This document shows, one piece after another, positions 571 through 18,120 of a DNA stretch of 64,000 nucleotides. Origin of the DNA: Haliea sp. (lineage in GTDB: Bacteria; Pseudomonadota; Gammaproteobacteria; Pseudomonadales; Halieaceae); contig PKDD01000093.1 in NCBI GenBank assembly GCA_002862465.1, forward strand, positions 4,167 to 68,166, given 5' to 3'. A program made the position numbers and the translations under genes. The notes beneath the pieces are model-generated. The model was not told the DNA's origin. It was given only the letters and a program-made list of their open reading frames with translations, and did not search any database. Position 1 is the stretch's first letter, and the number at the start of each line of letters is the position of its first letter.

Positions 571-909
571 TTACTTCTTATGTCTACGAAAAACGGTCAA
601 GCGAAGTAAGAGGGCCAGCGTGACTGCCACGCAGGCCGCAAAGACCAGCGGACGTAAAGCACCACTGGCTCCTTCGAACCCTGTCGTCATGATCTCAAAA
701 ACTGCCACAATCAATGCTGGCGCCATCGTGTCAGCCGTGACCTTCGGATATGCTGGAGTAAGCAGTAACGAGGCCAACAATAGTATTACCACAGCGACCC
801 AGCCAGACGACCAATGCCGACTCAGCCACCAAGCCAGATAAACCAGTAAAATGACGGCAGATCCAATATAAAGGTAGAGTGCAGTGTAGTACGAACTTTC
901 ATCTAGCAT
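571..909 (-). CDS. Small membrane protein (3 predicted TM helices)
   Basis: 112 aa, hydrophobic stretches, basic C-terminus RRHKK; last gene of the dnaX-ycgN run. Confidence 0.75.
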   Translation of the reverse strand: MLDESSYYTALYLYIGSAVILLVYLAWWLSRHWSSGWVAVVILLLASLLLTPAYPKVTADTMAPALIVAVFEIMTTGFEGASGALRPLVFAACVAVTLALLLRLTVFRRHKK

Positions 910-919
910 GCATTATCTC

Positions 920-1357
920 CTATTCAACCCAGTGCACAATATGCTCTTCGTATCCGTCAGGATGAACATATTCATCCGAAATAGCACGACCACGCACTGA
1001 AATGCCCGCTACATGCACTGAATTACGGTTGCCACTCACGAGAGGATGCCACCTTGGTAGTGGCAAATGTTGTGCGCGCAAACGATAAGCGCACGTATTG
1101 GGGAGCCAGTTTAGCGAACCTATATCAGTGGGGCGTAAATCAATACAGCTTGACATTAGCACTGAACGGTTTTCATAGTCCGAACATTGACAGGTTTTCT
1201 CCTCGAGATAGCGGCAACGGACCTTGGTATATGCAATTTCTCCACTTTCTTCATCTTCCAACTTGTGAAGACAACACTTGGCACAACCGTCGCACAGCGC
1301 TTCCCACTGCTCAGTGCTGAGCTCCTCCAGTGATTTTTCATGCCACCAGTCAGTCAC
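920..1357 (-). CDS. ycgN: YcgN-family cysteine-cluster protein
   Basis: WEALCDGCAKCCLHKLEDE...CRYL...CSDYENR...WLPNTCAYR; GTG start at 1357 overlaps the ycgL stop; ORF-track extension to 1462 rejected. Confidence 0.85.
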   Translation of the reverse strand: MTDWWHEKSLEELSTEQWEALCDGCAKCCLHKLEDEESGEIAYTKVRCRYLEEKTCQCSDYENRSVLMSSCIDLRPTDIGSLNWLPNTCAYRLRAQHLPLPRWHPLVSGNRNSVHVAGISVRGRAISDEYVHPDGYEEHIVHWVE

Positions 1358-5385: not shown

Positions 5386-5680
5386 TCCCACAATGACCTT
5401 GTCTACTGTAAAGAAAGAGAGGATACACCAGCACACGGGTGACAGAAACAGACGGCGCCTAAAGAAATCAGCATTTCCGTCGTCCTAGACCTGCGGATGG
5501 TCGCTACCCAAACACTATGCCCGAGTGCTCTGCTAATGCAGAACATGCACACAAATTGTGCAAAAAACGATCAATACTCACCATGAACCGCCTGGTACGC
5601 ACACCCAATCAATTCAAGGAGGCGGCTCGCGTAATGTTATCTCCGCGACCGTTTCATCTTATGCAGCCCATCAGACTAAT

Positions 5681-5784
5681 GGAGACAACCCAGACAGCCA
5701 CACCCCGGCACACGAGTCGGCAACTACCGTTGCTCCCTTCCGGGCCTGGCGGATTTCACTGCCTATCATTGCGGAAGGACCGCC
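5681..5784 (-). ncRNA. ffs: Signal recognition particle 4.5S RNA
   Basis: Minus strand contains CCAGGCCCGGAAGGGAGCAACGG (domain IV, GGAA tetraloop) and CGTGTGCCGGGGTGTGGCTG; upstream of dnaX as in many gammaproteobacteria. Ends approximate. Confidence 0.92.
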
Positions 5785-6032
5785 TGAATTGCCATAACGC
5801 CCTAGCTGGAACTTCCAACGCAGACATGGCATATTCTGCGGGAATCTCTGAGTCGCTGCAAGCAATGCTGTGAAATCGGATGGCAGCGCCTGCAAGCACC
5901 ACCGATGACGATCCGCTTGTAAACTACCAGAGAGCACCGGGAGCGCAGTCTTTAGTAAGGCAATTGCAAATACGACTAAGCGTCTATACATCACAGGAAC
6001 TGTGTTGCATTAACCAAGTACAGGATGAAACT

Positions 6033-6662
6033 ATGTCAAATGAACCCACAGTCTACGTCATCGATGATGAACCGGATATCTGTGGGGTTCTCAGCGATAT
6101 CCTCGACGCGGCGCACATTAAAGTAAAAACCTACACATCTCCCCTCGAATTTATGCTGACCTACAGCACAGAAAACCCGGGGTGCCTGTTGCTTGATATC
6201 AGCATGCCGGAGATCAGTGGTCTGGAACTCATGGAGAGGCTCATTGCAGAGGGAAACCGAACCCCAGTAATTTTTCTCACCGGAAATGCGACCATTGCAA
6301 ATGCTGTAGATATGTTGAAGGCCGGCGCCATTGATTTTATAGAAAAACCACCCAAGGTAGATTTATTGCTGAACAGTGTTAGAAAGGCGATAGCGTTGGA
6401 TGAGCAACGTCGTGCTGAGCAACGGCAGTTCTCATGCATCGACCAACGACTAAAGCTTCTAACTACACGTGAGCGTGAGGTCTTGACCTGGATCACAGAA
6501 GGAAAATCAAACAAAATAATCGCGCGCATTCTAGATATCAGCAGCAGGACAGTCGAAATTCATCGCGCAAATATTCTCAACAAAATGCAGGCCGAATCGG
6601 TAGCTGAACTGGTAAAAATGGATTTGACAGCAAAAGAATATGTGCCTACGCCGGGTCGCTAA
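6033..6662 (+). CDS. FixJ/NarL-family response regulator (REC + LuxR HTH)
   Basis: VYVIDDE, CLLLDISMP (phospho-Asp intact), DFIEKP, LTTREREVL...GKSNKIIARILDISSRTVEIHRANILNKM; ATG 6033. Confidence 0.92.
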   Translation: MSNEPTVYVIDDEPDICGVLSDILDAAHIKVKTYTSPLEFMLTYSTENPGCLLLDISMPEISGLELMERLIAEGNRTPVIFLTGNATIANAVDMLKAGAIDFIEKPPKVDLLLNSVRKAIALDEQRRAEQRQFSCIDQRLKLLTTREREVLTWITEGKSNKIIARILDISSRTVEIHRANILNKMQAESVAELVKMDLTAKEYVPTPGR

Positions 6663-6691
6663 CAGCGGTCCGTTCGGTCTCTAGCTCTAAA

Positions 6692-7915
6692 TTAGGATTT
6701 TAACTGAGACGCAAGCCACGCGCTGAAATCCTCACACGGCATCGGCTTTGCGACATAATAACCCTGTGCGGCTTGACACCCCAGTTCTGCCAGAAGTTCC
6801 TTCGTAGCAAGATCCTCAACCCCTTCCGCCACTACTCGCATATTAAATTGCTGGCCCAAGACGATACAAGCCTTGACAATAGCTAGAGCCTCCATATCAA
6901 CAACAATCTTACTGACAAAGCTCTGATCAATCTTCAGTTCAGAAAACGGCATTCGATATAATTGCAACAGCGAAGAATAGCCCGTACCAAAATCATCAAT
7001 GGACAAAAGCACACCCTTAAGTCGCAGTCGTGTAAGAACGTCCAGCGAAGTAGTGAGTTCACCCATTAATTCGGTCTCTGTTACCTCAAGAGTGATTGTC
7101 GTAGTATCCAGTTCGTTGTCAGCCAATAGCCTTGAGATGGTCTCGGGAAGGATCAGGCTAGTAATGTCGCTAGCCGATACGTTAATCGATAAATCGATCT
7201 GCAAACCCTCTTTCTGCCACTGACGTTGTTGGCTAATAGCCTGCTTGAACACGATGGTGGTCAAATCTGGCATCCAGCCTTGCTTCTCAATCAATTCGAT
7301 AAAGCGACTTGGATAGATAAGTCCTTGTGCTGGGTGCTGCCAGCGCACCAGACACTCAGCAGAGTACTTTGATGCGCCCTTTAACGCGAACTCTTCTTTA
7401 GGCTGGTAGTGCAAGACAAACTGATCAAAGTCTAAGGCCTCTCGTAATTCTTCAACGCTCACATCATGGCCAAGCCCTATCGGATCGCCAATTGGTTTAG
7501 AACTACGAATCGATGCTTGAGGCTCAAGCATATTGCGAAGGCGCGCGATCGACAGGGGCTTTTCAAGCGTTCCACGGACAACTAGAGCATGCGCAACAGC
7601 AAGGTTCTCAGCACCACTGAGCACCGCATGGTCTTGACCGCTCATGAGAATCAATTCGGGAGAATTCTCCATTTTGGCCAGATGGCGAATAACCTCGATG
7701 CCATCTATCCTAGGCATCTGCAAATCGAGTATTAGAATATTTTCACCCTCGAAGCACTGAACCTCATTGATGAAATCGGCTGCTTGGGAAAAACAATATG
7801 CCTCGAGACCCGTAAGCTCCACCACATCCCGGAGTATTTTCAAAATATCGGGCTCGTCATCTATTAAATAAACCCGTGGTTTAGAAAGGGGCATCGTGGC
7901 CATCTCACTACTCAT
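6692..7915 (-). CDS. REC-EAL c-di-GMP phosphodiesterase
   Basis: REC (LIDDE, LILDLQMP) plus EAL motifs HYQP, ECLVRW, SINVS, LEVTE, DDFGTGYSS, KID, VAEGVE, QGY. Start 7915/7903/7894 uncertain. Confidence 0.9.
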   Translation of the reverse strand: MSSEMATMPLSKPRVYLIDDEPDILKILRDVVELTGLEAYCFSQAADFINEVQCFEGENILILDLQMPRIDGIEVIRHLAKMENSPELILMSGQDHAVLSGAENLAVAHALVVRGTLEKPLSIARLRNMLEPQASIRSSKPIGDPIGLGHDVSVEELREALDFDQFVLHYQPKEEFALKGASKYSAECLVRWQHPAQGLIYPSRFIELIEKQGWMPDLTTIVFKQAISQQRQWQKEGLQIDLSINVSASDITSLILPETISRLLADNELDTTTITLEVTETELMGELTTSLDVLTRLRLKGVLLSIDDFGTGYSSLLQLYRMPFSELKIDQSFVSKIVVDMEALAIVKACIVLGQQFNMRVVAEGVEDLATKELLAELGCQAAQGYYVAKPMPCEDFSAWLASQLKS

Positions 7916-8418
7916 CTTACACCACGCTGCTGTGTGTCGAGGGCGCATCCATGATGAAATCTCCTTGCTGCGGTGCTTAGCTCCTATACCGGCCAATGTT
8001 AGATTACTTTACATAAGAAATATAGCAACTCATAGAGCTTACCCACGAGAGCACTACCGTCGAAAAGTCACCCGAAAAATATATTTGTCGATTCCAATGA
8101 AAACAGAAACCATCAATAGCATAACGCCCATGGCGAAGGGACTAGTTTTGAGAAGGTACTTTAAATTAACCTTCATAGGATATTGTTCTGAAAAGCTTCA
8201 GGCGGCTTATTTTCACAGCATCCTGCTAGGACTAACGTGAACTAAACTAAAAGTATGAGCACCAGCAATTCAATTGGCATGCTTGGGCCAAAGAAAGAGC
8301 ATTATGATTCTGGAATAAATAACGTTCAGCCTGTCCGTTTCATCCGACCATTTTTATAATCTTAATGCTATACCCTATCAATGCAACGCGCCTATGCTCT
8401 CAGCGCTTCGCGTCATTG

Positions 8419-9726
8419 TCAGCCTAAAGACCTTGGCAAGTATAGAAGGACAACCGTGCCAATATCAGGGTCCGATCGCAACCGAATATGACCCTTTGAA
8501 CGCTGGCAGAAGCCATAGACCTGCGACAAACCCATTCCTTTGCTGCCGGTCTTGTCATTACTGGAGAACAGGGGATCAAAAACAAATGGCCGAATATCCG
8601 CCGGAATACCATGCCCAGTATCAGACACTAAGAGCGCTACATAGTCACCAGCATCCAGAGCCGAAGCAGAGCTACAAGAGTCTTCATCAAAGGAAACGTT
8701 ACTCGTTTCCACTGCCAATTTGCCACCATCGGGCATTGCGTCGCAGGCATTTTGAATCAGATGAAGCACGGCATCCTGAAGATCATCAGGGTCAATGGTA
8801 GTCTGCCAGAGTGAATCATTAAGACTCCAGGCAAGCTTCACTGCAGAGCATAGCTCAGGAAGAATAAGCTGCTCCATTCCAATAAGCACTCTGTTCACAT
8901 CGGTAACAACTGCTTTCTTAGGTGATCGCCTAGAGAATCCTAGCAGTTGATTTGTTACAACACAGGCCCTCTCGGCGGCGCCCTGAATAGGCGCAAGTCG
9001 AGCCTGAATCTTTGAATCTTGTATACCCTCATAGCCCAACAGTTCAAGATTCCCCAGAATGATGGCTAATATATTATTGAGGTCATGGGCTACAGTAGCC
9101 GAGAGATGTGTCATCGCATCTAAGCGTTCTGAGGAGACAACCACATCGCTAGCGGTACTGCCTGCAGCGCTATTAACAAAGGCATCAGCGGCAACGACTC
9201 CTCTCTGACCAGTTTCTATTGGCAACGTTGCTGCAAAATTATGGTTTTCATCCAGATTTTTCCCCATCTGCAATATCGCTAGCCGCTGAATTTGCAGGGA
9301 AAGGAACACATTCACTTTGGAGATAATTATGTGCGTAGCGACAGGCCATGCGACATAGTCTGCAGGCGCTGATTTATGAAGGCTAAAATTTAACTGGTCT
9401 GGCTCAGAGACGCGGCTAAGAAAAATAACCGGCGTCTCACTAGATAGCTCATTTTGGACGACCGTTTGCGCCGTTTTTACACTTTCCTCCGATTGCATAT
9501 CAGCAGCATATAAAATGACCGAAAATAGCTGACTAGCACAGTATTCTGCCGCCTCTAACGGACTTTTTATGCTCATTAGCTCGGCGTCTATTTCACGAGT
9601 AATGGCTTCAACCAGGCCTACGTGTTCCATACCATCGGCGACCACTAGTATGCGCTGCTTGGGCAAATCCTGCACAACCAATTGGCTATGCTGTGACAGA
9701 CTCAACATCCCAAATAGATCACTCAT
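8419..9726 (-). CDS. Histidine kinase with N-terminal pseudo-receiver
   Basis: Degenerate REC, H-box VAHDLNNIL, N-box NACDAM, G1 DTGHG, G2 GMGL; AGGA SD before ATG 9726. Confidence 0.85.
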   Translation of the reverse strand: MSDLFGMLSLSQHSQLVVQDLPKQRILVVADGMEHVGLVEAITREIDAELMSIKSPLEAAEYCASQLFSVILYAADMQSEESVKTAQTVVQNELSSETPVIFLSRVSEPDQLNFSLHKSAPADYVAWPVATHIIISKVNVFLSLQIQRLAILQMGKNLDENHNFAATLPIETGQRGVVAADAFVNSAAGSTASDVVVSSERLDAMTHLSATVAHDLNNILAIILGNLELLGYEGIQDSKIQARLAPIQGAAERACVVTNQLLGFSRRSPKKAVVTDVNRVLIGMEQLILPELCSAVKLAWSLNDSLWQTTIDPDDLQDAVLHLIQNACDAMPDGGKLAVETSNVSFDEDSCSSASALDAGDYVALLVSDTGHGIPADIRPFVFDPLFSSNDKTGSKGMGLSQVYGFCQRSKGHIRLRSDPDIGTVVLLYLPRSLG

Positions 9727-10140
9727 GGTCCTTTCTAAGCCTCCGATTTTTTACCAACGCAGCGCACTTTTGCAGACTATAAAGAAATTTTCACAGCACT
9801 ATCGCTAAGTCAGGCGTGACTAATTAGCCACACACTATAGGTACAAGTACGTAATTAGGACATACGTGATAGTACGTAAGAGTATGCTACTAACGCTAAC
9901 CCCTATCTCTGTGGCGTTACAAATATTGGCGCTGGAAGACGCATTTATGGCACACTTTCAAGCGTCATGGGACAGGCATTTGAATAGGTCTAAACAATGT
10001 TCACAACATCGGCCACTGGCATCTCTACAGTTGTTAATACTCGCCCAAAATACCCAGCATATATATCTATTGAGGAAGAATTATTTCGCATATTTTCTCT
10101 ACAGATTCCTCCGCTGCCTAGTATTTGGCGGGCGGTGAGA

Positions 10141-12135
10141 CTATAAGCGGCTAATGGCGTTGATCAAATCTATCTTGCGATAAGGCTTGCTGATCAATTC
10201 ACCCGGCAACTCTTTATCCTCAGCCAAACGGTCGGCATATCCACTTGTAATCAGCACTTTCAAGTGAGATTGAAGGAGTAAAGCCTCTTTTGCCAACTCT
10301 ATCCCGTCCATGCCTCCCGGCATTACTATATCGGTAAACAAAATCGCATAATGTCGCTTAGCGAGTTCCTCAAGAGCGTCAGCAGCATTGTGCGCTACAG
10401 TGACTTTACAGCCGAGCGACGTCAGCCATATTGCAGATAGTTCGCACAGCGCGATCTCGTCATCCACTATCAGAACAGTCGAAATATCGCTGGTCTTCGC
10501 TGGAAGAGCGGCAGTGTCGGCAACTTTAGCAGCGGCGCCTGTCGCTTTCTCTAGAAAGGTCTGGCTGCTAAGTTCCACGATGTTCATGGCAGCCTCAGCT
10601 AAAACCTGAAGCTGCTCCGTTTGCCAATGAGCAAGCGTAGCCGGTGCATGCCCGATAACGCATAGCGCACCCGCCGCATCACCACTCGAATCTATCAAAG
10701 GAGCCGCAGCGTAAAAGTGTATGGCCGGCTCATTGATCACCAGTGGGCTCTGTGAAAATCGTGGATCAAGACGGGTATCAGGGACTACTATTACCTGCTG
10801 AGTGTCTTGGTTCGTCGGGAAAAAAAATCTCTCGTCATCCAGCATCGGCCTGTCATCTGAACCCACACTAGCCTTTAGCACCTGCTGATTTTTATCCATT
10901 GTGAGTATTAAAGCCGTTGATACTTTGCTGATTCTAGCTGCATCGGCCGCCAGCGAATCAAGGCCAGCATCCCAAACATCATTGACGGCCTTTTGATGCC
11001 GCGGCAATCCCCTATCTTGAAACTCCTGGCTTTCTGCTACATCGCCGCCCAACTTGTCCAATGGCAAATACAGACGCACAGCGGTGCCCGCTCCCTCGCT
11101 GCTTCTGACATGGGCTACGCCACCGGCCTCCTCTACATAGCGAGCAACCATGGCTAGACCTAGGCCTGTACCCTCATGTTGCGGTTTCGTGGTGAAGAAC
11201 GGCTTGAAAATCTGCTCTACAACTACGTCATTCATGCCAACACCAGTATCTGACACTTCGACCATTGCATACCAGCCCGGAGGCAACTTGTCATCGAAAC
11301 CACTTTGAACACTGACAGCCGTGGTTCGCAACGTAAGAACCATATTTCCTGCGACACCTCGCATAGCGTCACGTGAATTAATGACAAGATTAAGGATTAC
11401 ATTATCAAGCCCAGAGCCATTAATACGACAAATCAGCTTGCGGGGAGTTAGCTGTGAGCGAACGGTCACATTTGAACCGGCCGCGTTGTTTATCACCGGC
11501 ATTATTTCACCGATGAGTGTGTTCAGATTGTAAACTTGCACATCATTTTTTTCACGGCGAGCGACGGCAAGTAGCCCACGGCTCACTTCTACCCCGGCCA
11601 ACGCAGCGGTTAAGGCTGAGTCTAGTTGGGACTGTATTTGATCAAATCCCCGCGGCAGAGCCTCCTGCATTTCGTCAAGGTTCCCAACGACGATACCTAG
11701 TATGTTATTGAAGTCATGCGCCAGACCCCCAGTCAGTTGCCCTACTGCAGCAAGCTTTTGTGATTCGGTCGCTTCAAGCTGATGCTGCTGTGATTGTAGG
11801 GCGATTTCGCCCTTCGCAATATCAACCTCGGTGATCTTCATAACAGATTTATTCGACAGTCTAGCGACGTGCAGTACAAATGATGCCCAGAGGAGAAACA
11901 CAATACCCGTAAGGAGCATAAAGCCAGTTGTGTAATTGATCGTTATCAGAAAAATCTGCCCTAAATAGCATACTACAAACACACAACTAAAGAGGTTCGG
12001 ATATTTCCAATTTTTACGGGACAATGCCTTAGCCGCAGGGGGCAGCGCATAACCTTGAACCACAAAACTGGACAGCAGAAGCGCAGTCCCCAGGCAAAGT
12101 ACCCCAATTGTTATAAGTTCATTAGTGGACAACAC
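10141..12135 (-). CDS. Membrane hybrid histidine kinase TM-HisKA-HATPase-GAF-REC
   Basis: 3 TM helices, AHDFNN, NSRDAM, DTGVG, GTGLGL, then GAF (PDTRLDPRF...FYAAAPL...GALCV) and REC (VDDE, TDIVMP, KP). Confidence 0.88.
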   Translation of the reverse strand: MLSTNELITIGVLCLGTALLLSSFVVQGYALPPAAKALSRKNWKYPNLFSCVFVVCYLGQIFLITINYTTGFMLLTGIVFLLWASFVLHVARLSNKSVMKITEVDIAKGEIALQSQQHQLEATESQKLAAVGQLTGGLAHDFNNILGIVVGNLDEMQEALPRGFDQIQSQLDSALTAALAGVEVSRGLLAVARREKNDVQVYNLNTLIGEIMPVINNAAGSNVTVRSQLTPRKLICRINGSGLDNVILNLVINSRDAMRGVAGNMVLTLRTTAVSVQSGFDDKLPPGWYAMVEVSDTGVGMNDVVVEQIFKPFFTTKPQHEGTGLGLAMVARYVEEAGGVAHVRSSEGAGTAVRLYLPLDKLGGDVAESQEFQDRGLPRHQKAVNDVWDAGLDSLAADAARISKVSTALILTMDKNQQVLKASVGSDDRPMLDDERFFFPTNQDTQQVIVVPDTRLDPRFSQSPLVINEPAIHFYAAAPLIDSSGDAAGALCVIGHAPATLAHWQTEQLQVLAEAAMNIVELSSQTFLEKATGAAAKVADTAALPAKTSDISTVLIVDDEIALCELSAIWLTSLGCKVTVAHNAADALEELAKRHYAILFTDIVMPGGMDGIELAKEALLLQSHLKVLITSGYADRLAEDKELPGELISKPYRKIDLINAISRL

Positions 12136-12574
12136 GACGTTTTCTCAAAATCTGACCATCACGATGGTATCATGATAGCAAAGGAAGACCCATGCTGACC
12201 TAACCTGTCACTCCAGTTAACTGGGGGGACAATGTCCGCCCTCCTAATGGGAACTAATCGCAAAATAGTATCAACCCTTTGCATCAGTACTGAGCGTGGC
12301 TTCAAGGATTCTGACATAACTAGAATATCGATTTCGTAAAACAGGCATTTGATGATAACTGACTATATCCAACCAGACCCTATGCCTATATATTAAGTGC
12401 TTTACAGGTTATATGAAAATGCGGCCCCTCGGAAAAATACATTCACCATTCGGTCAATTGCACGAGCATGAGATGTTTTAATACCATGATCGACGAACGA
12501 CGATATTTATTCGCAACACCAAATTTACCTTTCGTCCATGGGTTGGTAATGTTCTGCAAAGGGCTGGATGAAAT

Positions 12575-15322
12575 ATGGTTATAAGAAAGCAGGCGCAGAA
12601 AAATACATTACTTAGAAGCCTAGGTATTAGTTTCCTCTATTTTGCCGCGGCTCAATTTGGACTGTCACTTGAGTTAGACTCCCACCAAATAACCCATTAC
12701 TGGCCAGCGTCGGGCGTTGCTTTAGCTGCGCTACTTTTTTATCAAAAGCGCGCACTCCCCGGGATTGCGTTGGGTATACTTGCCACGTTCAGTGTTTTAT
12801 TTTTGCAGCAGCCTTTTAAACCAACACTAGCACTCCTATTTGTTACTTCGGTCGCATTTGGCGCTCTAGTAGTGCAACCACTGATAGCGGTAATGTTATT
12901 GCGGAGATTTGCATCTCCGATGCCATTTTGGACGCATATTAGTACCTTCTATCGAGGTCTTGGTGTTTTACTGGTAGCTTCAGTTATCCCTGCTGCCGCG
13001 GTAGCGGGCGCCCTCTATATGGCCGGCCTATCGAATAGCGATAATATACTCAGCGCCTGGATACTTTGGACAATGGCTAATTTTTTAGGCATGGCCACAA
13101 TAGCTCCACTTCTGTACCACATAGCGCGATACTTTGACGTAACTCCCGGAAACTCAGATCAGGCACCACTGTACACTATTATTACCTTTAGTCTTGCCTG
13201 CCTAGCAACAGTTGTTATGTTTATAGCGACGTCTAACATAGAGGAAACCGGTTATCGGAACATACTAGGTGCCGTAACAAATGGCGCTGGGACAGCAGTA
13301 GTTGACTCTTTAAATATGTCGAAGCCATTATGGGCTTCCATAGCAACGCTGATTATTGGCCTCCTTTTTACGCACATTGTTTTTGCGCATGAAAAAAATC
13401 GAAAGGACGGCTTACGCACCAAAGCTTTTCATGAGGCTATCGTTGTTAGCGCAAGGCAGCCTTTCGTCCACCTTGACGAAAATGGAATAGTCCTTGAATG
13501 GAACAATGCCGCTCATCTGGTATTTGGCTGGACTCTAGATCAGATTCAGGGCCGAAAACTCTCTGAAACTCTCATTCCAAACAGATTTAAGGAAGCACAT
13601 GAAAATGGCATGGAGCGTTTTCGGAGCACCGGTGAAGGCCTCGTTATAGGTAACATTGTCGAACTTGAGGCTTCATGCGCAGATGGCACTGAATTACCAA
13701 TTGAATTGCTTATAAACGCGATACAGACTGAAGACGGGTGGCATTTTTTTGCCTTCATTTATGACATTAGCGCGCGCAGGACTAACGAATATGCTTTGCA
13801 AGCTGCACACGATAAGTACACTGGGCTGTTCGAAGCCAATCCTGACGCAATTATCACCTATGATCAAAAAGGTAATATTGAGGATGCCAATGCTGCGGCA
13901 ATAGTTTTATTCGGTTGGTCGCGAGACGAGATCCTTAACATGAACTGCGAGGCAGTTATCGCCGACCAATCTAAGGCGTATTTCCATCAACTGCATAATA
14001 ACGCCGACGATGCAAACCCCTTAGATTTGTCTTATACGATCCAGCCAGTTTTTGCCAATCGACGGGATGGCTCAGAATTCCCATTTGAAGCGGTCGTCAA
14101 CACACAGAAAACTGAAACGGGCATACAGTTTGTTAGTGTAATTCGCGACATCACAGACCAGGTAGAAGCGCAGAAAATTAGAGATTCAAATCAGAAACTT
14201 GAAACCTTGGGCGAACTAACTGGCGTACTAGCGCATGAATTTAATAACTTGCTTGCCATTATAATTGGCAACCTTGACTTGGCCATTGCTCACGAGACTG
14301 GAACAACGCCTAGTGCAACCATGCGAGACAGGCTCAATGCCGCGCATAATGCCGCAATGCGCGGATCCGGAGTGGTGAAGTCACTCCTTGCAGTGGGAAC
14401 CGATCAGCCAATGCCTAAGGACCGCTTCGACGTTGTTTCAATGATGGAAGAAATTTTGCCTACGCTGCAGGTCGAAGTTGGAAAAAATATTGCATTATCT
14501 GTAGAGACAACGAATAAATCATTGTTAGTGAATTCGAACCGCAGTTGGCTTTCGGAAGCAGTCCAAAATATAGCAATCAATGCCCGCGAGGCTGTTACAG
14601 GTCACGGTCAAATTAAAATATCGCTAGAAAGCACACACAGTTCATCGATAAATGATAAAAAATTAGCGTTGTCGTCAGGCGAATATGTCGTCGTTAAAGT
14701 CTCTGATACCGGTTCAGGAATGAGCCCCAGCGCAGTTCAAAAGTCATTCGAGCCATTCTTCACGACAAAAAAAGCTAGTGGCCACAAAGGCATTGGCTTA
14801 TCGATGGTGGCGCGAATCGCCAAGCAATTAGGCGGTGCCGCCGCTATAGCTTCGGAGCCGGGAAGAGGCACAATTGTGCATATTTTCTTGCCAAAGGCAG
14901 AGTCGTATAGCCCACCTGCGGACGACAGCTATCTAAATTCAGGCGCCCCTCGACAGAATATCCTAGTGGTCGATGATCAAACAGACATTTTAAAATTAGT
15001 AGTCTCGTGGCTAGAAAAATCAGGTCATAACGTACAAAGCGCCAGCAATGCTGACGTTGCCTTGAAGATTATTAATTCGACTATACCGTGCATTGATCTA
15101 TTAATTACCGATATGATTATGCCATCCATGAATGGAGATTCTTTATCGCAGTTTGCGCGCAAACGTAATCCTGATGTCAAAATACTGTATATGACGGGTT
15201 TCTTAGATCGATCGCAGAAGCATTCCTTTGATGATATGGACGCCCCTGTTCTTGAAAAACCATTTCGTAAAGACACATTCTTGGCCGCAGTAAACTCAAT
15301 ATTTGATGCTGCCAAAATATAA
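12575..15322 (+). CDS. Hybrid histidine kinase MASE1-PAS-PAS-HisKA-HATPase-REC
   Basis: MASE1 (YWPASGVALAALL), two PAS/PAC domains, AHEFNN, NAREA, DTGSG, GIGL, C-terminal REC (VVDD, TDMIMP, KPF). Confidence 0.9.
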   Translation: MVIRKQAQKNTLLRSLGISFLYFAAAQFGLSLELDSHQITHYWPASGVALAALLFYQKRALPGIALGILATFSVLFLQQPFKPTLALLFVTSVAFGALVVQPLIAVMLLRRFASPMPFWTHISTFYRGLGVLLVASVIPAAAVAGALYMAGLSNSDNILSAWILWTMANFLGMATIAPLLYHIARYFDVTPGNSDQAPLYTIITFSLACLATVVMFIATSNIEETGYRNILGAVTNGAGTAVVDSLNMSKPLWASIATLIIGLLFTHIVFAHEKNRKDGLRTKAFHEAIVVSARQPFVHLDENGIVLEWNNAAHLVFGWTLDQIQGRKLSETLIPNRFKEAHENGMERFRSTGEGLVIGNIVELEASCADGTELPIELLINAIQTEDGWHFFAFIYDISARRTNEYALQAAHDKYTGLFEANPDAIITYDQKGNIEDANAAAIVLFGWSRDEILNMNCEAVIADQSKAYFHQLHNNADDANPLDLSYTIQPVFANRRDGSEFPFEAVVNTQKTETGIQFVSVIRDITDQVEAQKIRDSNQKLETLGELTGVLAHEFNNLLAIIIGNLDLAIAHETGTTPSATMRDRLNAAHNAAMRGSGVVKSLLAVGTDQPMPKDRFDVVSMMEEILPTLQVEVGKNIALSVETTNKSLLVNSNRSWLSEAVQNIAINAREAVTGHGQIKISLESTHSSSINDKKLALSSGEYVVVKVSDTGSGMSPSAVQKSFEPFFTTKKASGHKGIGLSMVARIAKQLGGAAAIASEPGRGTIVHIFLPKAESYSPPADDSYLNSGAPRQNILVVDDQTDILKLVVSWLEKSGHNVQSASNADVALKIINSTIPCIDLLITDMIMPSMNGDSLSQFARKRNPDVKILYMTGFLDRSQKHSFDDMDAPVLEKPFRKDTFLAAVNSIFDAAKI

Positions 15323-15463
15323 AATCATCTGAAGGCACCCTGACCATACGGTGATGCCCTTCTCGATGGGTCTTGTATCTCATTGATTGATTGACGTTTT
15401 AGTCGCGAGAATCAGTGACACTAACGACTTTCTATAATAAAAAAATACTTGAACAAGTAATCG

Positions 15464-15476
15464 TAAGTCATTGATT
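15464..15476 (-). promoter_or_regulatory. IHF consensus site just 3' of tRNA-His
   Basis: AATCAATGACTTA is a perfect WATCAANNNNTTR match in an AT-rich tract. Confidence 0.5.
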
Positions 15477-15479
15477 TTA

Positions 15480-15556
15480 TGGGGTGGCCGACGGGTCTTG
15501 AACCCGCTACCTCCGGAGTCACAATCCGGTGCTCTACCTGGTGAGCTACGGCCACC
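15480..15556 (-). tRNA. tRNA-His (GUG), with G-1 and encoded CCA
   Basis: Cloverleaf: acceptor GTGGCCG/CGGCCAC, anticodon arm CCGGA-TTGTGAC-TCCGG, G-1:C73, 77 nt. Confidence 0.93.
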
Positions 15557-15650
15557 ATAGTGCGTCGGCGACAGCGTTATAAGCATCTCGCCTGCTGGTA
15601 CAGGCTCCCTCACTTTAGAGTAGCCTACTTACTATACTGACGCGGCGCGA

Positions 15651-15680
15651 ATGGTATCTTTAGCTGTCCATAAGTGTCAA
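15651..15680 (-). promoter_or_regulatory. sigma70 promoter of tRNA-His
   Basis: TTGACA (15680-15675), 18 nt, TACCAT (15656-15651), GC-rich discriminator. Confidence 0.65.
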
Positions 15681-15808
15681 GTTGCTAGTGCCACTGCGCA
15701 TGAACCTAGCCCTCAATAATGATGCGGCGACACCGGTGTGCATTGATTTGAATACTTGGGACTGCTTATGATTACCCAATACCAATACCTTTAAGGCAGT
15801 GTTCGCTC

Positions 15809-16657
15809 ATGAGCAGGCTCACATCGAATCTATACCTAACGTGTCTAATTGCAGTGCTCGCGGGCTGCCAACCAAACTCGGTTTCCGTGCATGTAAACCA
15901 CGCGAGAATCAATGATCCACTGGGGAAAAAAATCATTTTTCTGGCAGGCGCAGACAGCCACCTGCCGGGCGCGCATGAGCATAAGGCTGGTTTAGAATTG
16001 CTATCTAGCGCTTTGCGGCAGCGCCAGCCTACGTTTGAGACCATCAATATTTACGGCGGCTGGCCCACGGACGAAACAGTCTTTGATGGCGCCGATGCCA
16101 TCGTCATGTATTGCGACGGCGGCGAATCGCACCTGATTAGCAATCACCTTGGGACCTTCAACCGTTTGTTAACCGAAGGCACCGGTGTTGTTGCTTTGCA
16201 CTACTGCGTTGAAGTGCCGAAAGACAGCCCCTCTTCTAAATCCATGTTAAATGCCATCGGAGGCTATTTCGAAACCTGGTGGTCAGTCAATCCACACTGG
16301 ATGGCTGACTATACGGATCTACCCGACCATCCCATTACGCGCCAGGTACAGCCCTTCGGCCTACTCGATGAGTGGTATTTTAATATGCGCTTTCTCGACG
16401 GGGGGATTACACCCATCCTGCAGGCTATCGCTCCGGCGTCAACAATGGAGCGGAGGAACGGCCCCCACAGTGGTAACGATGCGACACGTAGAAGCGTAGC
16501 GAAAGGCGTCCCGCAAGTCACTGCGTGGGCCTATGAGCGCCCAGCGGGCGGCCGTGGCTTCGGCTATACGGGTGGTCATTTTCACGCTAACTGGGAAAAT
16601 GTAAACGCACGAGAACTGGTTCTCAACGCTATCGAATGGGTCGCTGTTACGCCCTAA
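15809..16657 (+). CDS. ThuA-like domain lipoprotein
   Basis: Lipobox LAGC; IIFLAGADSH...HEHKAG, GVVALHY, DEWYFNMRF, GGRGFGYTGGHFHANW. Confidence 0.75.
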   Translation: MSRLTSNLYLTCLIAVLAGCQPNSVSVHVNHARINDPLGKKIIFLAGADSHLPGAHEHKAGLELLSSALRQRQPTFETINIYGGWPTDETVFDGADAIVMYCDGGESHLISNHLGTFNRLLTEGTGVVALHYCVEVPKDSPSSKSMLNAIGGYFETWWSVNPHWMADYTDLPDHPITRQVQPFGLLDEWYFNMRFLDGGITPILQAIAPASTMERRNGPHSGNDATRRSVAKGVPQVTAWAYERPAGGRGFGYTGGHFHANWENVNARELVLNAIEWVAVTP

Positions 16658-17789
16658 TACCGTCGACCCAACTCGCACTAATGTGGCGCTCCCTGTCCAG
16701 CGCCAAAAAACTCGCGCGAAAGCCTGGACTGATTGCGCCCAACTCACGCTCTAAGCCAAGCGCCTTGGCTGGATACGAGGAAGCCATACGGACCGCCTCA
16801 AACCAGTCCAAATGCGCAAACTTAGCGGCATTATTTACTGCCGATAGCATATCCAGATCGGAGCCTGCCAGAGCGCCGACCGCATCGGTAACACGGCCCT
16901 CGCTGGCAACAATCGCTTTACCATCAAGCACAAAAGATGTCTCCGATGAACCCACGGTGGGCATAGCATCGGTCACGAGCAATGCACCACCCCTTTTTTT
17001 TGCTGCAACGGCAATACTAAACGCAGCAGGATGCATATGATGACCATCTGCGATAATTCCGAACCAGCTATCATCGTCCTCAAGCGCGGCACCCACCATA
17101 CCCGGTTCCCTGCTCTGCAATGGCGTCATGGCATTGTAAAGATGCGTAAATCCGCTCAGGCCATGCTGAAGTGCATCGCGTGTTTCGGCATAGGTCGCCC
17201 CACTGTGACCCCCACAGACGATAACGCCTCGCTCTACTAACCGACTTATCATTTCTGGCGAAGTCAATTCAGGTGCAAGGGTGACGACGGTAGAGCCACG
17301 CTGCAGCGAAGTCAGAATATGAAAGCCGGCTTCGTCGAGCTGGCAAAATTTCCCGGCATCGTGCACACCCTTGCGCTTTGCGCTCAAAAAAGGACCTTCT
17401 AGGTGCAGTCCCAAGACACCGGGCACACCGATCTTAATGGCCTGAGCAACCGCAGATACAGCGGTACGCATAACGTCAAAACGAGTGGTAATCAGTGTCG
17501 GCAAAAAGCCCGTGGTGCCGTATTGGCGGTGCGCAGCGCCGATGGTGCGAAGGCTCTCGACTGTTGGGGCGGCAGTAAATAAAACACCTCCTCCACCATT
17601 AACCTGCAGATCAATGAACCCCGGTATCAGCATACCGCCTTCAAGATCATAAGATTCGTCAATGTCTGCCGGCACCTGCCCCGAGTCAACCAAGGCAACA
17701 ACATACTCACCCTCAATCAGAACTGCCTTGTGCTCGTGCAAAGACTCGCCGTCAAAAATAGTTCCGTTGACTATCGCCTGTACCTTCAA
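16647..17789 (-). CDS. nagA: N-acetylglucosamine-6-phosphate deacetylase
   Basis: PGFIDLQVNGGGG, HLEGPF, THLYNAM, DGHH, LVTDAM, LAGS; TTG 17789 preceded by GGAGG. Confidence 0.93.
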   Translation of the reverse strand: MKVQAIVNGTIFDGESLHEHKAVLIEGEYVVALVDSGQVPADIDESYDLEGGMLIPGFIDLQVNGGGGVLFTAAPTVESLRTIGAAHRQYGTTGFLPTLITTRFDVMRTAVSAVAQAIKIGVPGVLGLHLEGPFLSAKRKGVHDAGKFCQLDEAGFHILTSLQRGSTVVTLAPELTSPEMISRLVERGVIVCGGHSGATYAETRDALQHGLSGFTHLYNAMTPLQSREPGMVGAALEDDDSWFGIIADGHHMHPAAFSIAVAAKKRGGALLVTDAMPTVGSSETSFVLDGKAIVASEGRVTDAVGALAGSDLDMLSAVNNAAKFAHLDWFEAVRMASSYPAKALGLERELGAISPGFRASFLALDRERHISASWVDGIRA

Positions 17790-18043
17790 CGCCACCCTCC
17801 GCTGCACACTGGCTTTTCACTGCACCATCCCACAGCACAGTTTGTACTGGCAATATTAGCATGTTGCCAAAAGCTGCCGACAGTGGCGTCACCGCGGCGA
17901 GAATACATCATATGACCCAATAGTTTATCCGGCTAGATCTCAAAGTTACTTGCGTTTAGTAGCACTGCGGCCATGCGAGCTTTAAAAATCTGCCTTTAAA
18001 ATGAACGCAAGTAGTGCAAAGGAAAGAATGAGGAACGTAAAAA

Positions 18044-18120
18044 TGGTCGGGGTAGAGAGATTCGAACTCCCGACATCCTGCTCCCAAAGCAGGCGCGCTA
18101 CCAGACTGCGCTATACCCCG
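18044..18120 (-). tRNA. tRNA-Pro (UGG)
   Basis: CGGGGTA/TACCCCG acceptor, anticodon arm CCTGC-TTTGGGA-GCAGG, encoded CCA, 77 nt. Confidence 0.97.

Follow-up and report, generated by a model that had tools for sequence, protein, structure and literature searches.

Positions 5800-15470 of a 64,000-nucleotide stretch of Haliea sp. contig PKDD01000093.1 (hereafter, the window) carry a cluster of five signalling genes that probably constitutes a chromosomal, vertically inherited multikinase two-component system, trimmed from eight genes and arranged as a branched network resembling Roc and Hno. Five long open reading frames (ORFs) fill this interval between ffs, the gene for the small signal recognition particle (SRP) RNA, and tRNA-His(GTG), and Pfam and NCBIfam assign all of them to signalling proteins, namely three histidine kinases (HK435, HK664 and HK915), a FixJ/NarL-type response regulator (RR) and a REC-EAL response regulator predicted to be a phosphodiesterase of cyclic di-GMP (c-di-GMP). 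This inventory agrees with an earlier sequence-only reading of the locus, and the multikinase cluster with transcriptional (RR) and c-di-GMP-degrading (REC-EAL) outputs proposed there is supported. Gene order and spacing are reproduced in two independent Logan assemblies (contigs L001 and L002), and in each of 13 metagenome DNA runs between about one-third and nearly all words sampled from the stretch are present. The three internal spacers are long and AT-rich, as had been noticed before (414-503 bp and 40-43% GC, compared with a median spacer of 98 bp in the rest of the window); promoter and terminator scans gave counts no higher than those in shuffled sequence. The kinases have H-boxes of the forms AHDLNN, AHDFNN and AHEFNN, the curated models closest to them are those of the PRK13557, CckA and VirA kinases, and their nearest structures are those of the CckA DHp-CA core. 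Pfam detected neither an Hpt nor an SBP_bac_3 domain in any of the three, and the GG[DE]EF motif is absent from all frames of the window, in line with the earlier statement that the locus has no GGDEF gene.

Eight-gene form in relatives and origin of the cluster

Relatives of the window carry a longer version of the cluster at the same locus. In L083 (a Halioglobus sp. metagenome-assembled genome), L084 and L091/92, eight genes encode, in order, a MASE1-PAS hybrid kinase, a kinase of the HK-GAF-REC type, a YfiR/HmsC-like protein (PF13689, E 1e-24), a 359-amino-acid (aa) outer-membrane barrel protein, a pseudo-receiver kinase, a CHASE8-HAMP-PAS hybrid kinase (879 aa), REC-EAL and RR. The window cluster is a reduced copy of this form from which the genes for the YfiR-like protein, the barrel protein and the CHASE8 hybrid kinase were deleted, and two of the three long AT-rich spacers contain deletion remnants beside promoter regions (Table 1). 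The first, in the HK435/REC-EAL spacer, was detected by tblastn with aa 1-34 of the L083 CHASE8 kinase HK879 (50% identity, E 1.7e-4) and is the start of that gene; the second, in the HK664/HK435 spacer, resembles the barrel gene. The locus is hence not self-contained, contrary to the sequence-only reading, being an eight-gene derivative with remnants and lacking an HPt protein, which hybrid kinases such as HK664 and HK915 would normally require.

A reduced form is also found in L095, a contig that ends inside the cluster and retains HK436, REC-EAL and RR. Its remnants differ from those of the window, so erosion was at least partly independent in the two lineages, which points to independent or stepwise loss of the same three genes. 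At 93-1053 and 2364-2786, L095 keeps larger pieces of a barrel pseudogene and, of the CHASE8 kinase gene, the final 52 codons. A deeper lineage (L086, L093 and L094; HK664 56% identical) encodes the first six genes of the eight, has no regulators and is not located at dnaX. This natural deletion series of eight, six and five genes indicates which parts are dispensable. The ancestral cluster probably encoded four kinases of the CckA/VirA type together with two response regulators, an outer-membrane barrel protein and a periplasmic protein like YfiR/HmsC; it would have entered the junction between a tRNA cluster and ffs in the ancestor of a Halioglobus-like genus-level group and been inherited vertically since.

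Comparison of the junction across the family is consistent with such a history. By a dnaX scan the window belongs to the Halieaceae (Cellvibrionales), with the best species representatives 57-76% identical. Among these more distant Halieaceae, dnaX, recR and two further downstream genes are syntenic and the upstream side differs: L004 is an empty site with tRNA-Pro, tRNA-His and tRNA-Arg directly beside ffs, in L009 ChaC and an MscK-like channel separate tRNA-Arg from ffs, and L003 has an RND efflux system at the same junction. The signalling genes are absent at the dnaX/ffs junction in L003, L004, L005 and L009, and these differing upstream contents indicate that the junction is variable across the family. 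Closer relatives were recovered via HK664 and HK435 orthologues. In at least four other genus-level lineages (L083, L084, L091/92 and L095) the cluster occupies this dnaX/ffs junction, and their housekeeping proteins are 83-92% identical. L083, with flank proteins 86-91% identical to those of the window, has the order tRNA-Pro, NagA, ThuA, tRNA-His, cluster, ffs, dnaX, and shares both the tRNA-His/cluster junction and the RR-ffs-dnaX order with the window; RR also adjoins dnaX in L084, L091 and L095. Left flanks differ, with an IS240 transposase and a sulfotransferase in L084 and GST and AraC in L091/92. The empty tRNA/ffs junction to which the sequence-only reading had looked for support therefore exists, in L004, but the cluster is syntenic within the genus-level group. 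We note that a ThuA-like gene and nagA lie between tRNA-Pro and tRNA-His in both the window (15480-18120) and L083, that a tight tRNA-Pro/His/Arg(TCT) cluster occurs in the distant L004 (8587-8932) and L009 (3245-3582), and that tRNA-Arg(TCT) is missing from the window locus.

Recent acquisition of the locus as a self-contained genomic island, with integration at the tRNA-His 3' end, is extremely unlikely and is largely refuted here. Such an island would account for the tRNA 3' end at the border, the absence of the cluster from the four distant genomes, the left flank that varies among relatives, including the IS240-type transposase of L084, and a composition that deviates as the sequence-only reading expected, although only modestly: gene GC is 0.45-0.50 compared with 0.515 +/- 0.017 in other genes (that is, about 4 points lower), and the tetranucleotide distance is the highest in the window. 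However, the cluster contains no integrase, recombinase or other mobility gene, no att-like direct repeat of the tRNA-His 3' end was found at the far border, and the same junction is occupied in relatives at the housekeeping identities given above. In a comparison with L084, dS is 0.80 in dnaX and 0.78-1.04 across the five cluster genes, whose dN/dS is 0.08-0.27, values compatible with co-divergence and purifying selection; divergence of the island proteins is no lower than that of the flanks, a poor fit to recent transfer. The cluster is instead an old, lineage-specific insertion at a rearrangement-prone junction, and the acquired island proposed earlier is borne out only in part, since the insertion is neither recent nor mobile. 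A match beside the tRNA to the IHF consensus WATCAANNNNTTR was rejected as evidence: the consensus has 7 matches in the window compared with 2.3 expected, so the match is at chance level, and its flank did not align with L083, the closest relative.

Table 1 Features of the cluster, its borders and its counterparts (window coordinates unless a contig is named)
Feature	Position	Strand	Basis or remark
ffs (small SRP RNA)	5689-5785	-	Rfam RF00169, 64.9 bits; conserved right-hand cluster border
TGCTGTGAAA, copy 1	5866-5875	+	Upstream of RR gene
RR, FixJ/NarL-type (REC + LuxR/GerE HTH), 209 aa	6033-6662	+	Pfam REC 1e-24, GerE 2e-21; longest ORF 5880-6662
REC-EAL response regulator, RocR/PvrR-like c-di-GMP phosphodiesterase (predicted), 407 aa	6692-7915	-	Pfam EAL 4e-63 and REC; longest ORF to 7996
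CHASE8-HAMP-PAS kinase remnant	8075-8176	-	Start codon and ~34 codons, then stops; translation and three-way DNA alignment
TGCTGTGAAA, copy 2	8211-8220	-	Upstream of CHASE8 kinase remnant and REC-EAL gene
HK435, N-terminal pseudo-receiver + HisKA + HATPase, non-hybrid	8419-9726	-	Pfam HisKA, HATPase
TGCTGTGAAA, copy 3	9789-9798	-	Upstream of HK435
Tandem 18-nt element, TTACGTACTATCACGTAT / TTACGTACTTGTACCTAT	9836-9879	-	25-nt period; upstream of HK435; candidate operator
Remnant resembling 3' part of barrel gene (OMP359)	9896-9952		blastn vs L084 12739-12796, 78% over 58 nt, E 1e-6
HK664, 3 TM + DHp/CA (H140 DFNN) + GAF + REC hybrid kinase	10141-12135	-	Pfam HATPase, REC
HK664/HK915 divergent promoter region	12136-12574		439 bp, 42% GC
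HK915, MASE1 + PAS1 + PAS2 + HisKA/HATPase + REC hybrid kinase	12575-15322	+	Pfam
IHF-consensus match, WATCAANNNNTTR	15464-15476	-	Adjoins tRNA; not deemed meaningful
tRNA-His(GTG)	15480-15555	-	ARAGORN and Rfam; left-hand border, 3' end (15480) faces cluster
Tandem-element counterpart	L083 ~13591-13640		
Tandem-element counterpart	L084 ~13852-13903		
Tandem-element counterpart	L086 ~8349-8392		
Tandem-element counterpart	L095 ~897-942		

Kinase inputs and regulator outputs

Gas sensing was raised by the sequence-only reading, and a gas or redox input is plausible through the first PAS domain (PAS1) of HK915, judging from its likeness to heme-binding PAS domains. The best PDB matches of PAS1 are the heme domains of B. 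japonicum FixL (E 4e-9 to 7e-11), followed by DosP; the proximal histidine corresponds to His342 (codon 13598-13600; FixL H200 equivalent) and, like the equivalent of FixL R206, is kept in four orthologues. PAS1 also ranks with the best-conserved stretches of HK915 (84-87% identical, compared with 63-70% overall). The NCBIfam FixL score of HK915 is 132, under the equivalog cutoff of 850. In the deeper lineage (L086, L093 and L094), the HK915 orthologue is 1156-1185 aa long and has a CHASE domain between MASE1 and PAS1 that is found in none of the window, L083 and L084, a distribution consistent with loss of a periplasmic sensor in the Halioglobus-like group. L091 (2731-5522) carries the MASE1-PAS kinase as two ORFs of 282 aa and 648 aa, whereas L092 (2733-5522) has it intact (929 aa); these are nearly identical contigs from the same sample, and the split is a frameshift variant or an assembly error.

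Two of the three kinases bear out the earlier description of non-standard architectures, HK664 for a GAF domain that follows the catalytic domain and HK435 for its pseudo-receiver; no characterised counterpart of either type was found in the literature, where nothing was found on a C-terminal GAF domain in a histidine kinase or on DUF4154 with a histidine kinase. HK664 has three transmembrane (TM) helices with almost no periplasmic loop, as judged from sequence and from AlphaFold2 helices, and its GAF domain spans approximately aa 388-520 (roughly 10576-10974; PF01590 E 1.3e-11 on the excised region). The AlphaFold2 model (mean pLDDT 73.5) has the domain order TM, DHp, CA, GAF, REC, with a pTM of 0.53 that is too low to fix inter-domain packing. 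Foldseek placed CckA on top and otherwise returned generic kinase cores plus ShkA at low TM-score, and the closest solved GAF is that of 4zmu, a GAF-GGDEF cyclase. Orthologues are 56-74% identical with unchanged architecture. Beyond these, the CA-GAF-REC core recurs at 37-47% identity with HAMP-PAS, MASE1 or HNOBA-PAS inputs, and the more distant HK-GAF-REC homologues (44-47% identical) are found near REC-EAL regulators, other hybrid kinases, H-NOX or an Hpt gene, the last being part of the related cluster L090.

The N-terminal domain of HK435 spans the whole REC profile, yet scores 18.5 bits against a cutoff of 30.2. The equivalent of CheY D57 is A74 (Y in L083, D in L084), and that of CheY K109 is W, with the lysine lost in the window, L083 and L084 alike. 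On these residues the domain is classed as a pseudo-receiver, so HK435 probably responds to a protein or small ligand and not to phosphorylation. The ATP-binding boxes (N, DxGxG and G-rich) look intact, the best structural match of the core is CckA (5idj), and HK435 is the fastest evolving of the five genes (dN/dS 0.27).

RR and REC-EAL, whose receiver domains are alike, are encoded by convergent genes 29 bp apart. The likely start of RR was placed at 6033 because its orthologues (209-214 aa) begin at the equivalent of M52 / MSNEPTVYVIDDE. Its best PDB matches are FixJ (5xso) and StyR (1yio), and its NCBIfam FixJ score is 203 bits, under the equivalog cutoff of 255. REC-EAL aligns full-length with RocR (3sy8, E 1e-55); its best NCBIfam match is PvrR, at 254 bits far under the equivalog cutoff of 580. 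Aligned to the RocR residues, it retains all class I EAL motifs (ECL..R, N, EVTE, DDFGTGYSS, K, EGVE and QG), and its receiver retains the DD, D, S and K residues.

Cis elements and transcription

A tandem 18-nt element upstream of HK435 is likely to be a regulator binding site, given its conservation. Two copies of TTACGTACTAnCACGTAT are near-invariant in six lineages, including the 56% lineage, although the coding DNA of these lineages aligns at only ~67-77% identity, and the element is unique within the window. A second motif, TGCTGTGAAA, has exactly three copies in 64 kb, all in island spacers and facing the downstream gene, compared with ~0.1 expected by chance (a rough estimate). As a conserved operator this motif was rejected, since neither L083 nor L084 keeps it exactly, and by the same pattern of conservation the tandem element is the stronger operator candidate.

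The island is probably transcribed in situ, although DNA carry-over in the libraries is possible. Marine metatranscriptome contigs (at least 99% identity) cover HK435, REC-EAL, RR and fragments of both hybrid kinases, with HK435 the best-covered island gene (8199-9815, word depth 12-31). A contig start at 5868 and contig ends near 9793-9815 adjoin two of the TGCTGTGAAA copies. These transcripts bear on whether the locus is decaying, that is, whether the remainder became non-functional after the three-gene loss and is drifting towards pseudogenes. The two deletion remnants in the window, the independent erosion in L095, the split MASE1 kinase ORF in L091 and the dN/dS of HK435 would all be compatible with decay, but it is very unlikely: none of the five ORFs is interrupted and their catalytic motifs are complete, the dN/dS range indicates purifying selection, transcripts are present in marine metatranscriptomes and the upstream tandem element is conserved. 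Outside the coding genes, metatranscriptome word depth is 20-46 over 5400-5753 (the dnaX-ffs spacer plus the 3' part of ffs).

Proposed circuit and comparison with known systems

In the circuit that we infer for the cluster, three kinases with different inputs would converge on two receivers. HK915, through its membrane MASE1 domain and its FixL-like, possibly heme-binding PAS, may sense O2, redox state or a gas, and HK664 may receive its input through the 3-TM intramembrane stub and a ligand of the GAF domain that lies between catalytic domain and receiver. HK435, the sole non-hybrid kinase, would transfer phosphate directly to the regulators. For HK664 and HK915 an unlinked HPt is expected, because no HPt is encoded locally, the related cluster L090 has an Hpt gene and the P. 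aeruginosa hybrid kinase RocS4 uses a separate HptA. Phosphorylated RR would alter transcription, with the tandem 18-nt element and the TGCTGTGAAA sites as candidate targets, and the phosphorylated RocR-like REC-EAL would hydrolyse c-di-GMP.

Several observations weigh against this circuit. The distal FixL R220 position is Val in PAS1 of HK915, so the arginine is not conserved. Within one mismatch, TGCTGTGAAA is not conserved at matching places in L083 and L084, and any role would be species-specific. A tblastn search of the window with one Hpt protein (from L090) returned no Hpt-like ORF, in agreement with the sequence-only reading, although this is a weak test as Hpt domains diverge fast; neither cluster nor window thus offers a candidate HPt through which the hybrid kinases would reach the regulators. 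The four kinases of L086, L093 and L094 occur without the two regulators, so kinase-regulator adjacency is not universal.

Adjacency without a shared circuit is possible, though we consider it rather improbable. Here only HK435 would serve both regulators, and HK664 and HK915 would feed other pathways via HPt proteins elsewhere, or their own receivers would be end points or phosphate sinks. In favour of this reading, neither hybrid kinase contains an HPt and no such protein is encoded close by, RocS4 requires the separate HptA (PMC12051241), and kinases stand without regulators in L086, L093 and L094; moreover, the HK435 gene adjoins those of REC-EAL and RR, and the reduced cluster of L095 retains exactly HK436-REC-EAL-RR. 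On the other hand, kinases, RR and REC-EAL have stayed together in five lineages despite repeated deletions within the cluster, and the distant HK-GAF-REC homologues are again found near REC-EAL regulators, both of which argue for the converging circuit. A c-di-GMP feedback onto the kinases through a CckA-like site was also considered and rejected. The primary c-di-GMP site of CckA, on the CA domain, is Y514/K518/W523 (PMC5026420), and this triad is conserved in none of the three kinases: the positions are A/E/V in HK664 (alignment to 5idj) and, by eye, A/K/A in HK915 and Y/Q/H in HK435, which keeps only Y and G515.

Most known examples of branched multikinase networks in which a signal is divided between transcription and c-di-GMP turnover come from a few pathogens (Roc, Pvr/Rcs and Hno), and the window locus has a comparable layout in an abundant group of marine heterotrophs, built from different kinase types. 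The system type is known (Roc, PvrSR/RcsCB, HnoXKBD and FixLJ), but membership in each fails on defining features, because the cluster has no unorthodox kinase or HPt, its scores are under the equivalog cutoffs and it has no H-NOX. General concepts are unchanged by a cluster that is fairly ordinary; its value is that of a tractable, uncharacterised example with testable parts, namely the candidate heme-PAS sensor, the post-core GAF, the pseudo-receiver kinase and the highly conserved operator-like element.

A closely comparable layout is that of Roc in P. aeruginosa, where several kinases (RocS1, RocS2 and RocS4-HptA), as proposed for the window, act on NarL/FixJ-type regulators and REC-EAL proteins (RocA1, RocA2 and RocA3; RocR and RocR3) (PMC12051241, PMC3083521); the window REC-EAL is a full-length RocR match, and a NarL/FixJ-type regulator gene adjoins it. 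Roc loci have also lost genes in a clade-specific way, and one member lies in a tRNA-flanked rearrangement hotspot (PMC12051241). A further precedent is PvrSR/RcsCB of PAPI-1 (PMC3842833). However, RocS1 and RocS2 are unorthodox kinases (H1-D1-H2) with a periplasmic SBP_bac_3 domain and their own HPt, neither of which the window kinases have. The latter are of the CckA/VirA type with MASE1/PAS, 3TM/GAF or pseudo-receiver inputs, and the cluster has no cup fimbrial operon beside it.

In the HnoX-HnoK-HnoB/C/D network of Shewanella and Vibrio, a gas-responsive kinase of an NO pathway phosphorylates a REC-EAL phosphodiesterase and other receivers (PMC8846402). The HK664 homologue P0026 (47% identical) is an HNOBA fusion whose gene has an H-NOX gene and REC-EAL genes as neighbours, whereas the window has neither H-NOX nor HNOBA, and its candidate gas sensor is the FixL-like PAS of HK915. 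Resemblance to FixL/FixJ lies in PAS1, with its FixL heme-PAS matches, and in RR, which best matches FixJ in the PDB and NCBIfam. HK915 differs in being a MASE1-anchored hybrid in which R220 is not conserved, the scores stay under their cutoffs (FixJ 203/255, FixL 132/850), and the five-gene, signalling-only cluster contains no fixK or nif/fix target.

HK664 resembles ShkA of Caulobacter (DHp-CA-pseudoREC-REC, opened by c-di-GMP) in having an extra domain between the catalytic domain and the terminal receiver (PMC7010744), and Foldseek aligned 581 columns of the HK664 model to full-length ShkA (6qrj) at a low TM-score; the inserted domain is a GAF in HK664, not a pseudo-receiver. A broader proposal would build on this likeness. 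HK664 and its homologues with 3TM, HAMP-PAS, MASE1 or HNOBA inputs would form a new class of hybrid kinase, HK-GAF-REC, in which a ligand-bound GAF gates the terminal REC by a ShkA-like 'domain liberation' and which, with HK435 as a hub, would make up an HPt-independent multikinase relay setting c-di-GMP in marine Halieaceae. We regard this as unlikely.

Lastly, relatives with the eight-gene form recall YfiBNR/HmsCDE in encoding, next after the HK664 orthologue, a YfiR/HmsC-like protein and an outer-membrane barrel protein. The partner there is a histidine kinase rather than a diguanylate cyclase, the second protein is a barrel rather than an OmpA/Pal-like lipoprotein, and both genes are deleted in the window.

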